From IMG/VR virus record IMGVR_UViG_3300008120_009089: a stretch of DNA of 64,000 nucleotides; one strand, given 5' to 3'. This document shows positions 45,492 to 49,117 of the stretch, piece after piece. The translations under genes were made by a program, and so were the position numbers. This DNA comes from an uncultured virus (IMG/VR IMGVR_UViG_3300008120_009089). Its lineage: Duplodnaviria; Heunggongvirae; Uroviricota; Caudoviricetes. The first letter of the stretch is position 1, and each line of letters opens with the position of its first letter. The notes beneath the pieces were generated by a model that was not told the DNA's origin, did not search any database, and saw only the letters and a program-made list of their open reading frames with translations.

Positions 45492-45829
45492 ATTATTTCT
45501 TCTATTATTTCATTTCTCGATTCAGACTTAATCATATTAAGTAAATCCCCATATGTAATTTCTTCACTTAATAATTCATCTTTGTAATAAATATCAAACT
45601 CAGCAAAACTAGCAGTGTCTCCATCCATTCTTGGTAATTCACCATCATATCCTCTATACGAAACCATTGTAAGTCCTCTGAAAAATCCCCAACCACTTGA
45701 AACTAATAGATTTTGATTCCATTCAGTGTAATCAGATTCTATTGTAACTTCGGTTCCACCAACATAATATTCATCTGGTTTTGCAATGAATTTAAAGTCC
45801 TTTAAAAAATCAATCTTAGAAATCATCAT
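45476..45829 (-). CDS. hypothetical protein, C-terminal [10 protein letters not shown]
   Basis: ORF plus degenerate shared motif. Confidence 0.6.
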
Positions 45830-46775
45830 CTAAACTATCAAAGTCAATATTCTTATCAGAAGCTTTTTGATATTCAGAAACTCTTTTCTCGAAGAAGTTA
45901 GATTTGTTTTGTAAAGAAAGCATATCCATAAAATCAAAAGGATTTTCAGAGTTATAAACTTTCTTACAACCTAATTCAGTTAACCAGAAGTCAGCAACGA
46001 ACTCTATGTATTGTTGCATCATCTTAGCGTTCATACCAATTAAAGAAACTGGTAAAGAATCAGTAACGAATTCTTTTTCAATCTCAACTGCTTCAGTAAT
46101 AATCTCAGTAATTCTTTCAGCACTAACTTTATTCGTGATGTATTTGTTATGTAACAAACAAGCGAACTCACAGTGTAAACCTTCATCTCTTGAAATTAAC
46201 TCATTAGAGAATGCTAAACCTGGCATTAAACCTCTTTTCTTTAACCAGAAAATAGAACAGAATGATCCAGAGAAAAAGATACCTTCAACAGCAGCAAAGG
46301 CAATTAATCTTTCAGCAAATGAATCAGATTCAATCCATTTAAGTGCCCACTCAGCTTTCTTTTTAACAGATGGTACTGTTTCAATAGCATTGAATAAATG
46401 ATCTCTTTCTTTAGAATCTTTGATATAAGTATCAATCAATAAAGAGTAAGTTTCAGAGTGAACATTCTCCATTGCTATTTGAAAACCATAAAAACTTTTA
46501 GCCTCTGGATACTGAACTTCTTTTAAGAAATTCTCAGCTAAGTTTTCATTTACGATACCATCAGATGCAGCGAAGAATGCTAAAACATTTTTAATATAAT
46601 GTTTTTCATCATCATTTAATTTTTCATTCCAGTCAGTTAAATCTTGTGCTAAATCAATCTCTTCGCTCGTCCAAAATGACATTTCAGCAGTTTTATACTT
46701 TTCCCAAATGTCATGATATTTCAACGGAAACATCACAAAACGACTTTTGTTTTCTTTTAAAATATGTTCTTCCAT
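45816..46775 (-). CDS. nrdB: ribonucleotide reductase class Ia beta subunit
   Basis: [46 protein letters not shown]. Confidence 0.95.
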
Positions 46776-46828
46776 AATAATTTATTTTGTTTTTTTTATA
46801 TATTCAATTTGAAATTTGTTTAGTTTTT

Positions 46829-46921
46829 AAAAAAAGAAAACCACCGAGGAGCGAATTCAGTGGTTTTCAAAAATATAGTCCACCCAGAGGGGCTTTAACT
46901 ATAACGGGTCCTAAGCCGTTT
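46829..46921 (-). ncRNA. candidate structured RNA with segments antisense to 23S rRNA H69-H71, ending in an intrinsic terminator
   Basis: Three hairpins; the + strand reads TAACTATAACGGGTCCTAAG (46896-46915) and AGGAGCGAATTC (46847-46858). Confidence 0.5.
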
Positions 46922-47474
46922 CTTTAAATTTATTACCTTTTGACAAATTATCTTTTGCCCAAAGTGGTTGTAAGTTTGATAGAGAATTTACTGTACTCAA
47001 TTTTGTATTTTTATTAAATTTACTTATTGGTTTTTTATGATCAATATGCCATTCACCATAATTATCCCAAGACATTCCGTCTTTAAATTGACATTCTATT
47101 CTTTGTTTCAATTTAAGACTATTATACCCTAAAATCTCAAATGTTTTTTTATTCTTTTTTACTCCAAAATATTTTAAACATCTTCTTAGAATATCCCTAG
47201 CTGAATTTCCGATTCTAATATTTAGATTATTTTTTCTAAGTTCCTTTCTTCTCTCCGAATAACTACTCTCATAATTCTTTGATTTTATTTTATAATCACC
47301 GGTATTCCTATATAATCGTTTTCTTTCTAAAACTCTATTAGTATTTGATTTGTAATGTTTTTTAACCATATCTTTTGAGCAATCTTTACAATAAATTTGA
47401 TATCCAGTTTTAGAATTTTTCTTCTTGTGAAAATCACTCAACTCTTTATCAATGGAACATTTTTTACAAATCAT
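46911..47474 (-). CDS. HNH homing endonuclease
   Basis: CxxC..CxxC; GMSWDNYGEWHIDHKKP...NLQPLWAKDNLSK. Confidence 0.85.
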   Translation of the reverse strand: MICKKCSIDKELSDFHKKKNSKTGYQIYCKDCSKDMVKKHYKSNTNRVLERKRLYRNTGDYKIKSKNYESSYSERRKELRKNNLNIRIGNSARDILRRCLKYFGVKKNKKTFEILGYNSLKLKQRIECQFKDGMSWDNYGEWHIDHKKPISKFNKNTKLSTVNSLSNLQPLWAKDNLSKGNKFKETA

Positions 47475-47512
47475 ATTTTATATATTAAAAAATTATCCGT
47501 ATGTTTGCTATT

Positions 47513-47896
47513 ATGAAAAGGTTATTTTTAGACGATTGGCGAATTCCTAGAGACTGTGCTACTTATATGTGGCAAAGAAAGGTGAATTGTACCGTATTCC
47601 ACGAAGAATGGGATATAGTAAGATCGTATGGTCAATTTAAATCTTGGATAATTGAAAATGGTATACCAGATTTAGTAGCATTTGATTATGATTTAGCTGA
47701 TGTTGAAGAATTAAAAGAAGAACTTCCATTTGAATATTGGTTTAATCTAGATGAAAATAGAGTTTATACTGGATTGGATTGTGTTATTTTTTTACTTAAC
47801 TATTGTAAAGAAAGAAACTTAAACTTTCCTGAATATATTATTCATTCAGCAAATCCGGATGGAAGTGATGAAATAAAAAAACTTTTAGCTGTGTAA
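47513..47896 (+). CDS. cyclic-phosphate processing receiver-like domain protein (second copy)
   Basis: LFLDDWR, VAFDYDL, TGLDC, IHSANP. Confidence 0.8.
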   Translation: MKRLFLDDWRIPRDCATYMWQRKVNCTVFHEEWDIVRSYGQFKSWIIENGIPDLVAFDYDLADVEELKEELPFEYWFNLDENRVYTGLDCVIFLLNYCKERNLNFPEYIIHSANPDGSDEIKKLLAV

Positions 47897-48158: not shown

Positions 48159-48473
48159 ATGTTAAAACACGAAGTTAAAATTGAGTTTCAAAACTCAGAA
48201 GTTTTAAAATCTATTATTGAAAAATCCTACTTTGAGGAAGGAACTAATGGTAAATTATTTGGTAAAAGTAATTACTTAGTTATGTCTAGTGACATAGAAC
48301 CAGAAGCATTTGAAATCTTAAAAGAAGTTAAAAACTCAACAGTTAAAATCTGTAATCAAGAAATTATCGATGGTTCAATGAGATTTATCGTTGAGGAAAC
48401 TGAAGGTGAGTTGAGAATGTATCCAGCATCTATTTATTGTGTAAAAGAAGAAGATAAGTATAGCTTTTATTAA
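48159..48473 (+). CDS. hypothetical protein
   Basis: ORF 104 aa. Confidence 0.6.
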   Translation: MLKHEVKIEFQNSEVLKSIIEKSYFEEGTNGKLFGKSNYLVMSSDIEPEAFEILKEVKNSTVKICNQEIIDGSMRFIVEETEGELRMYPASIYCVKEEDKYSFY

Positions 48474-49117
48474 TATTCAAAATTATATTTATTACTTTTA
48501 AGTAAATTTATTCTTCTTTTTGTTATACAACAATTATCTATACCACCTATGATATAAGGTGGTATAGACTCTTTAAAACCTTGATAAATTGATATTTTAT
48601 GGTCTATCGTCGGATATGACATATCATTGGAGTTTAATTTCATATTTTCCAAAATGTTCTCTTTATCATAAAAATCAAGACCATCCCAAATCTCAAATAA
48701 ATAAGGTTTATTTCTATTGGTTATTCTATTAACTAATTTTCTATATTTTTTAAAATCAATAGAAGATTCAAATGGTATATAAATACCCTTTTCCTCTTTA
48801 GTTTTTATCATCTTATTCGAATTATTATATTTTGAGTCACCATATATTCTTTCTTTTGTAATAGAAGTCTTTTTATTTTTACAACCTTTACATGAATAAT
48901 AATTATATCTACTTTTATTCCTCAAATAGGCTCTATATTGTAGCTTTTTATGAGATCCACATATTTCACAACAACAATCTATTATAATTGGACTTTTATG
49001 AGATAAATGATTTATGTCAATTTCTATAATATCATACATCTTAACATCATAAAATTCACTTAGTCTGTTATAGTTTAGAGGAACTATTGTCGTTTTTATC
49101 TTTTTTGTTAATAACAT
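48470..49117 (-). CDS. putative HNH-like endonuclease
   Basis: CEICG..CKGC; PTIDHKIS...N...T.R.IN..K. Confidence 0.65.
   Translation of the reverse strand: MLLTKKIKTTIVPLNYNRLSEFYDVKMYDIIEIDINHLSHKSPIIIDCCCEICGSHKKLQYRAYLRNKSRYNYYSCKGCKNKKTSITKERIYGDSKYNNSNKMIKTKEEKGIYIPFESSIDFKKYRKLVNRITNRNKPYLFEIWDGLDFYDKENILENMKLNSNDMSYPTIDHKISIYQGFKESIPPYIIGGIDNCCITKRRINLLKSNKYNFEY

Follow-up and report, generated by a model that had tools for sequence, protein, structure and literature searches.

A widespread family of phage structured RNAs with conserved loops complementary to the helix 69-70 region of 23S ribosomal RNA

Directly behind a putative HNH endonuclease gene of an AT-rich uncultured virus (a record of 127 kb with a completeness estimate of 46%) lies a short GC-enriched island that carries a piece of the 23S rRNA sequence, which raises the question of whether a phage might encode an RNA directed against the ribosome of its host. 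In this study, we analysed the 64,000-nt stretch of the record that holds the island, referred to as the window, together with its relatives in viral contigs. The GC content rises to 0.42 at positions 46850-46939, compared with about 0.2-0.3 in the surroundings. On the plus strand, the 20-mer at 46896-46915 aligns with positions 1911-1929 of the E. coli 23S gene rrlH at 19 out of 19 letters with one inserted G, covering the loop and 3' strand of helix 69 (H69) and the start of the H69-H70 junction. A second piece, GGAGCGAATTC at 46848-46858, is a somewhat degenerate copy of a block of the relatives, (G)GTAGCGAA(TTC), which corresponds to 23S 1929-1937. The island, the conserved match with its additional G and the resemblance of the second piece to the next rRNA segment had been described in an original prediction made from the letters alone, and all three hold. 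Tested against the whole 23S rRNA, the resemblance of the window itself is not significant and lies within chance, its local score being equalled in 9 of 30 Markov-simulated 64-kb windows. The significance of the element is thus due to its relatives only.

The transcribed strand of the island is predicted to be structured. The minus-strand RNA from 46926 to 46822 folds into three hairpins, the last followed by U7, with a minimum free energy (MFE) of -30.6 kcal/mol (z = -3.13; 2 of 200 shuffled sequences were equally stable), in agreement with the fold originally drawn. Taking the MFE fold and the covariance model described below together, the whole element spans 46828-46921 on the minus strand, about 94 nt with three hairpins and a U-run, and starts at the stop codon of the HNH gene. 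Hairpin P1 (46904-46919) is closed by AACGG/CCGUU in the MFE fold (ACGG/CCGU with an additional A-U pair) and presents the loop CUUAGGAC at 46908-46915, the most conserved block of the family and complementary to 23S 1922-1929; the TAG stop of the HNH gene falls within this loop sequence. Hairpin P2 (46874-46903), UAUAGU/ACUAUA around a small GC hairpin (46882-46893), constitutes the variable middle module, the position of which is taken in relatives by a UACG- or UUCG-capped hairpin, an antisense-H69 hairpin or a GGCUGCUG hairpin. The third hairpin (46836-46868) comprises 12 bp, including one G·U pair, with the 9-nt loop AUUCGCUCC at 46848-46856, and is followed by the U-run at 46828-46835. 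The loop AUUCGCUCC corresponds, in degenerate form, to the family block AUUCGCUAC, which is complementary to 23S 1929-1937; relative to the family consensus this loop is one letter short, and the best 23S duplex predicted for it is at another site.

With a 12-bp stem and U7 on the minus strand, 43 nt past the HNH stop, the third hairpin displays the sequence features of an intrinsic terminator; a consensus terminator scanner overlooked it, since the loop limit of the scanner is 8 and the loop here has 9 residues. Downstream, the ribonucleotide reductase small subunit gene nrdB follows on the same strand (45816-46775; Pfam Ribonuc_red_sm, E 2.6e-116), with its nearest relatives in huge uncultured phages and Tenacibaculum phages. 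Within the 3' end of the HNH gene, a sigma-70-like promoter (46974-46947, 9 of 12 consensus letters) is no better than chance, as 4 such sites were found against 5.8 expected. The element may consequently be the 3'UTR of the upstream mRNA or also a stand-alone sRNA gene. Metatranscriptome contigs on 45900-47500 cover small shares, in parts of nrdB only, and no contig was found at 46818-47500. On the plus strand, the P1 hairpin followed by TCTTTAAATT (46903-46930) scores as terminator-like and could halt transcripts running against the HNH gene.

The exact 20-mer is found in 8 loci of viral contigs, which represent 3 sequence types of common architecture: an A-run, a hairpin with the loop (G)GTAGCGA(ATTC), a variable linker and the 20-mer. 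Stems and both flanks are wholly different among the three types, which are unrelated to each other. The relaxed pattern GTAGCGA-N15-45-ACTATAACGG gave 109 viral loci, 69 of which passed a hairpin filter, yielding 43 distinct sequences with the window included; within this subclass, 9 of the 43 have the extra G, a C in the RNA, most members being without it. A pattern reduced to the two loop blocks (GTAGCGA-N22-52-GGTCCTAA) and two patterns for the class C described below (CAGCAGCCG-N4-34-GGTCCTAAG and TGCTCACTT-N30-60-CAGCAGCCG) matched at least 120 viral loci each, and altogether the pattern scans of viral contigs uncovered well over 150 distinct elements of the same build. That an ordinary GC-rich terminator region merely resembles rRNA by chance, as the score of the window against simulated windows would favour, is refuted by this comparison and has practically no probability left: the two blocks recur throughout these elements with unrelated stems and flanks, they are adjacent in the rRNA, and one subclass contains 21 contiguous rRNA letters.

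The two-loop-block pattern also revealed a second, larger subclass, class C, residing on fragments of phages of about 350 kb (CheckV estimate). Its layout consists of a two-tier hairpin with the loop GGTAGCGAAT, a hairpin NNN-CAGCAGCCG-NNN, a hairpin with the loop GGTCCTAAGG and a conserved tail, and it ends without a U-run. In columns 98-107 of the class-C alignment A1, the place of the U-run after the last hairpin is occupied by the conserved single-stranded tail AAAGUGAGCA, which has no rRNA counterpart, its best match of 7 out of 10 letters being equalled by 300 of 300 shuffles. One class-C record is a complete phage genome of 352,754 bp with terminal repeats (G006) and carries one strong and one degenerate copy of the element; extra copies of rRNA-sense words above expectation were found neither in this genome nor in the window. 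The degenerate copy (L515:17537-17623, 38.3 bits) keeps the GGCUGCUG hairpin and the tail and is without the UUAGGACC block, and the strong copy (L525:8068-10552) lies between a gene resembling DNA/RNA non-specific endonucleases and the gene of the large terminase subunit. A covariance model, R1, was built from 54 class-C sequences. Its sole match in the window is 46828-46930 (16.9 bits, E 0.097), and on the whole 127-kb record it again finds only this element (E 0.028), which ties the form present in the window to class C independently of the pattern scans.

Members of the family range over 30-kb phages carrying ribonucleotide reductase (RNR), T4-like phages and 350-kb jumbo phages. Among the 120 matches listed for bacterial and archaeal genomes with the non-class-C pattern, there is no true instance, all being chance matches or real 23S genes, and the family looks phage-only. 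For one 131-nt query from the locus L169, blastn gave no match at E <= 1 in GenBank phages, and no cultured carrier was found. Rfam 15 gave no match at gathering threshold in the whole window, with 3 chance-level matches (E 5-9) in 46600-47100, and none at E <= 0.1 in any of 20 related loci. ARAGORN called 0 tRNA or tmRNA genes in the window, and a tRNA-like reading, suggested by the 7-nt U-turn-like loops, was dropped for want of such a call. In the accessible portions of the literature, no paper on a phage RNA complementary to 23S or 16S rRNA was found. The element is hence one member of a widespread and uncatalogued family of phage structured RNAs of 90-110 nt.

The structure and the strand of this RNA follow from the family alignments. 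Across the 54 class-C sequences, 94.0% of the cells pair, compared with 68.1% in shuffles, and the covariation score of 0.687 stands against 0.220 in shuffled alignments (reached in 0 of 500) and at most 0.163 with slid partners. For the strand co-directional with the flanking genes, the variable pairs display about 30 G·U cells against 6 A·C in alignment-based counts, a T-run of at least 4 follows the last hairpin in 43/43 distinct members of the window subclass, and in 31/31 loci with long flanks a co-directional ORF ends 12-163 nt upstream. UACG and UUCG tetraloops, which are stable, occur only on the strand antisense to rRNA. The RNA strand is therefore co-directional with the flanking genes and antisense to rRNA, which here is the minus strand. 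The element starts at the stop codon of the upstream gene or a few bases past it, and in the window subclass it ends in an intrinsic terminator. For most class-C elements, the stop of the upstream ORF lies at most about 15 nt from the first block, in some cases being a UAG inside it, as in the window, and part of the class has a consensus TTGACA-N17-TATAAT promoter for the next gene right behind the element on the same strand. The structured minus-strand RNA that had been proposed, antisense to 23S rRNA and with its complementary parts in loops, is thereby supported. Translation control or protection had been put forward along with it as possible actions on the ribosome.

Function could also reside in the plus strand: a small RNA, or else single-stranded DNA, would imitate parts of rRNA (an H69-like hairpin, GGUCCUAAGG, GGUAGCGAAU and the 530 loop) and serve as a decoy for an rRNA-binding enzyme, a toxin or a modification enzyme. 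Such a mimic would account for the H69-like hairpin of several subclasses, where the stem covaries (CCGTTA/TAACGG, CGGTA/TACCG, GCA/TGC) and the loop stays rRNA-like, and it may draw on a -10-like TAnnnT just ahead of GCTCAC in class C and on the hairpin with a T-rich tail that follows GGTCCTAA in the RNR-linked subclass and in the window. A first crude count of G·U and A·C cells over automatically chosen stems was mixed as well, but was replaced by the alignment-based counts, and these favour the opposite strand by 30 to 6. Since the co-directional ORFs, the T-runs, the class-C promoter and the UNCG tetraloops all belong to the opposite strand and the rRNA pieces stand in permuted order, we regard a functional plus strand as quite improbable.

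Within the antisense RNA, conservation concentrates in two unpaired blocks, while the helices covary freely. The 5' block, (C)UUAGGAC(C), lies near the 5' end of the RNA, and the second block, (A)UUCGCUAC(C), is located in the loop of the last hairpin. CCTTAGGACC is the reverse complement of 23S 1921-1930 at 10/10 letters, a match reached anywhere in 16S, 23S or 5S rRNA by 6 of 300 shuffles, and the second block complements 23S 1929-1937, directly adjoining the target of the first. We take the combined stretch, 23S 1921-1937, to be universally conserved and to comprise the base of helix 69 together with the 5' strand of helix 70. The apparently permuted order of the rRNA pieces arises because the 5' block complements the 5' half of this stretch and the 3' loop its 3' half; in a simple reading, this arrangement would allow two separate loops to grip adjacent target segments. 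The original prediction had named homologues that keep their stems and lose the complementary loops as one of the outcomes that would refute it. The opposite was observed, the stems covarying and the loops being conserved.

To what extent each block is retained can be read from 118 distinct class-C members that were anchored on the tail and the middle hairpin only and were thus unselected for the loops. CCTAAGG is present in 108 of them, one-letter variants occur in 7, and it is absent from 3 chance-like matches. The last loop reads GTAGCGA in 69 members, GCACGAC in 31, TGGCG in 9 and otherwise in 9. The first block is accordingly near-universal, and the second is frequent yet replaceable. The rRNA matches of the GCACGAC and TGGCG variants are no better than chance. 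The notion that GCACGAC, TGGCG and ATTCCCGG tile both strands of helix 70/71 is not supported, as 6-mers match equally well in either orientation; one single member has a 9-mer. By our reading, the variant UUUGGGACC (L215) would keep its rRNA pairing through G·U. An antisense copy of helix 69 exists in some subclasses only and is lacking in most of the family.

The middle hairpin of class C adds a possible third contact, since its CGGCTGCTG complements 16S 519-527, presumably the 530 loop, at 9/9 letters (6 of 300 shuffles, p about 0.02). This complementarity is suggestive only, chance matches of 8-9 letters occurring as well. In the 8-mer histogram, ACCGTTATA matches the region around position 95 of 23S rRNA in the opposite orientation in 45 members, which is a chance match.

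Structure predictions agree with an exposed position of the loop blocks, which are 0.63-1.00 unpaired across the elements examined; for the window, the mean unpaired probability is 0.97 for UUAGGA and 1.00 for the terminator loop. Cofolding with a fragment of 23S 1900-1945 gains a predicted -11 to -21 kcal/mol, compared with 0 to -7 for the reversed fragment. RNAduplex runs of the whole 105-nt RNA against full 16S and 23S rRNA yielded long spurious duplexes (median -64 kcal/mol, like shuffles) and were discarded, so that the duplex results retained refer to short blocks and the 46-nt fragment only. The sequence signature of a loop-presenting antisense RNA, conserved unpaired complementary loops together with covarying helices, is present in the family.

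Regarding the neighbouring genes, the 187-aa HNH ORF (46911-47474, minus strand; Pfam HNH, E 0.0032, below the curated cut-off) lies upstream of the element and outside it, apart from its stop codon. It had been proposed that the RNA is a guide for the adjacent HNH protein; a homing or target site, or an immunity variant marked by the extra G, would be further ways in which the element could belong to the endonuclease. In two related phages (L130/L217 and L111/L173), the HNH gene likewise lies directly upstream, and 23S 1917-1931 is, as we understand it, a stretch where rDNA introns and homing endonucleases are known to cluster. Two Acidobacteriota 23S genes are interrupted after TCCTAAGGT. 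Viral contigs contain 448 relatives of the HNH protein, but the element was found in only 2 of 80 loci encoding such relatives, both from the phage of the window itself, and most elements stand behind non-nuclease genes: ribonucleotide reductase (large subunit), a UVR-motif protein, holin, amidase, small hypervariable proteins and others. Some of the 9 members with the extra G have no HNH gene, permuted rRNA-like halves in covarying hairpins would be needless for a DNA recognition site, and there is no match to the HNH-associated RNA families of Rfam. We consider an HNH-related role very improbable, and the guide proposal is not supported; nor is the alternative of a DNA decoy or target site. 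The HNH gene thus appears to be an incidental neighbour that came to lie beside the element. A HEARO or IscB omega-RNA type was rejected on the same linkage of 2 in 80, the lack of an Rfam match and the nature of the protein, a 187-aa ORF with an HNH domain only.

Several further observations concern this neighbourhood and the rDNA site. In both Acidobacteriota MAG genes (L332 and L345) the break right after TCCTAAGGT looks like an intron at the 1931 site, and in L332 the first intron bases are able to pair with both exon ends. A protein of 131 aa encoded at 47501-47896 on the plus strand has a Pfam match to cREC_REC ('cyclic-phosphate processing receiver domain', E 2.4e-15); its gene diverges from the HNH gene and, in L130 and L111, which are related loci, is not adjacent to the element. 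A second nuclease-like ORF of 215 aa with a Cys-rich N-terminus and an IDHK motif (48470-49117, minus strand) lies 1 kb from the HNH gene and has no Pfam match at E <= 0.01. Between 43980 and 45464, four small ORFs of 96-155 aa on both strands share the N-terminal pattern MKxxKxFExF, and small-protein arrays at the element loci L125, L137, L142 and L152 all start with MKxTEF(R/K)KLI(R/K)EEVRKVL; such N-termini recall the capsid-targeting N-termini of T4 internal proteins.

The genetic context points to another alternative, a purely cis-acting module of mRNA 3' ends (terminator, mRNA stabiliser or protein-binding site) that spreads as a mobile cassette and for which the complementarity to rRNA would be irrelevant or a relic, in the latter case of a captured antisense rDNA fragment. 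The constant position right behind a stop codon and the canonical terminator in 43/43 members of the window subclass would be expected of such a module, and flanks differ between otherwise identical elements (L012-L016), as for a shuffled cassette. The last loop is swapped for unrelated sequences in 40% of the class-C members, and a close relative of the window, L019, with an HNH protein 98% identical, survives with a clean 71-nt deletion of P2, terminator hairpin and U-run; either the element is dispensable or the L019 copy may be dead. At the deletion site (L019:3560-3590, related to 46828-46903 of the window), CUUAGGACCCGUUAU is joined straight to the upstream region of nrdB. A relic, however, would not hold 10 + 9 letters invariant across very different phages while the stems change, and class C, ending without a U-run, does not qualify as a mere terminator. 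In many cases the gene downstream is that of the large terminase subunit, with many others too, but no conserved neighbouring protein gene was found across the loci examined. On balance, an exclusively cis-acting module seems unlikely to us. A large terminase gene of the T4 type also follows the element in the UVR-linked subclass (L161).

We therefore return to the loop-presenting antisense RNA and compare it with known systems. In CopA/CopT, RNA I/RNA II and Sok/hok, the loop-presenting antisense RNAs of plasmids and phages, stable hairpins likewise show target-complementary loops, with a terminator hairpin at the 3' end. Those RNAs are encoded opposite their own target gene and pair with mRNA, whereas the presumed target of the element is host rRNA encoded elsewhere, and its two loops address adjacent halves of one target stretch. 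Two loops of one RNA that pair with adjacent target segments in the same 5'-to-3' order are known from group II introns, where EBS2/EBS1 recognise IBS2-IBS1, and this likeness explains the permuted order of the rRNA-like pieces. The element itself is no group I or group II intron, being of about 94-100 nt, without catalytic domains and without an Rfam intron match, and it lies between a stop codon and the upstream region of the next gene. I-CeuI and other homing sites of rDNA introns (23S 1917-1931) share the same universally conserved sequence, but are contiguous double-stranded DNA in rRNA genes, whereas the pieces of the element are permuted and placed in the hairpin loops of an antisense RNA.

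Pairing with rRNA has precedents in other contexts. Calicivirus TURBS and Shine-Dalgarno sequences pair with small-subunit rRNA and position ribosomes for (re)initiation. Like TURBS, the element is part of a viral mRNA by a stop codon and complementary to an rRNA loop; unlike TURBS and Shine-Dalgarno sequences, its main complement is 23S rRNA, and in the window subclass the transcript ends right after it. Pre-rRNA is the pairing partner of snoRNAs and of archaeal guide sRNAs, some of which serve as guides for helix 69 (reviews: PMC7277114, PMC7991803). As in those guides, which act on unfolded rRNA, conserved single-stranded parts of the element complement conserved rRNA sites. The box motifs of such RNAs (RUGAUGA/CUGA for C/D, and those of H/ACA) are absent from the invariant columns of A1; the CUGA of the window is not conserved in the 43-member set, and no Rfam snoRNA match was obtained. 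Unlike for snoRNAs, we know of no partner protein of the element. Nothing snoRNA-like of this kind was found for bacteria or phages in the accessible literature. A further likeness exists to 3'UTR-derived, terminator-embedded bacterial sRNAs, for example CisR of V. cholerae (PMC13250501), in that a seed region is followed by the mRNA's own terminator hairpin directly behind the coding region. Those sRNAs have mRNA targets, one linear seed and a host- or lineage-specific occurrence, whereas the element is found in very different phages and carries anti-rRNA loops. Ribosomal RNA as the presumed target would be new for phage or bacterial regulatory RNAs.

We propose as our leading, though tentative, model, at a little under an even chance, that the element acts as a loop-presenting antisense RNA pairing with single-stranded 23S rRNA. 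The RNA would be transcribed with the flanking genes, and its two loops would seize adjacent halves of 23S 1921-1937 while this stretch is single-stranded, in nascent 23S rRNA, late pre-50S particles or free 50S particles. Within the large subunit, helices 68-71 belong to the parts that fold last, which makes nascent 23S rRNA and late pre-50S particles plausible partners. Pairing could then hinder or exploit the maturation of the host large subunit or subunit joining; alternatively, it could result in rRNA-dependent control of the terminator. The family, its structure and strand, the conserved loops and their complementarity are established by the comparisons above, whereas rRNA as the partner and the effect of pairing are inferred. 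It should be noted that the target stretch adopts structure and is buried in part once ribosomes are mature, so that pairing needs unfolded rRNA. The stoichiometry is also unfavourable, as a 3'UTR element could hardly equal the ribosomes in number, and the replaceable last loop, the lack of the antisense helix 69 in most of the family, the degenerate terminator loop of the window and the L019 deletion likewise count against rRNA pairing.

More specifically, and with more doubt, the element might be a portable, snoRNA-like 'anti-ribosome' module that clamps the helix 69-70 junction of nascent 23S rRNA and thereby blocks or redirects ribosome assembly, or else its terminator might sense free rRNA. 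The form found in jumbo phages would also clamp the 530 loop of 16S rRNA. Such a module might keep the host from investing in further ribosomes and free the nucleotides of rRNA for phage DNA synthesis, an idea with which the frequent place of the element beside ribonucleotide reductase genes would fit. If either the anti-ribosome or the terminator-sensing reading is true, no earlier mechanism in which an RNA acts on rRNA would be known from bacteria or phages.

Even without a function in rRNA binding, the elements described herein constitute a large family of structured RNAs that is absent from Rfam. If the pairing is real, phages manipulate host rRNA directly by RNA, and rRNA is, to our knowledge, a target class not described so far for bacterial or phage regulatory RNAs. 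With a universal target sequence, the module would act whatever the host, and its distribution over unrelated phages would be accounted for. The family would then offer a testable way of controlling ribosome assembly or subunit joining in bacteria by means of RNA, and a natural design for antisense inhibitors against the H69-H70 region.
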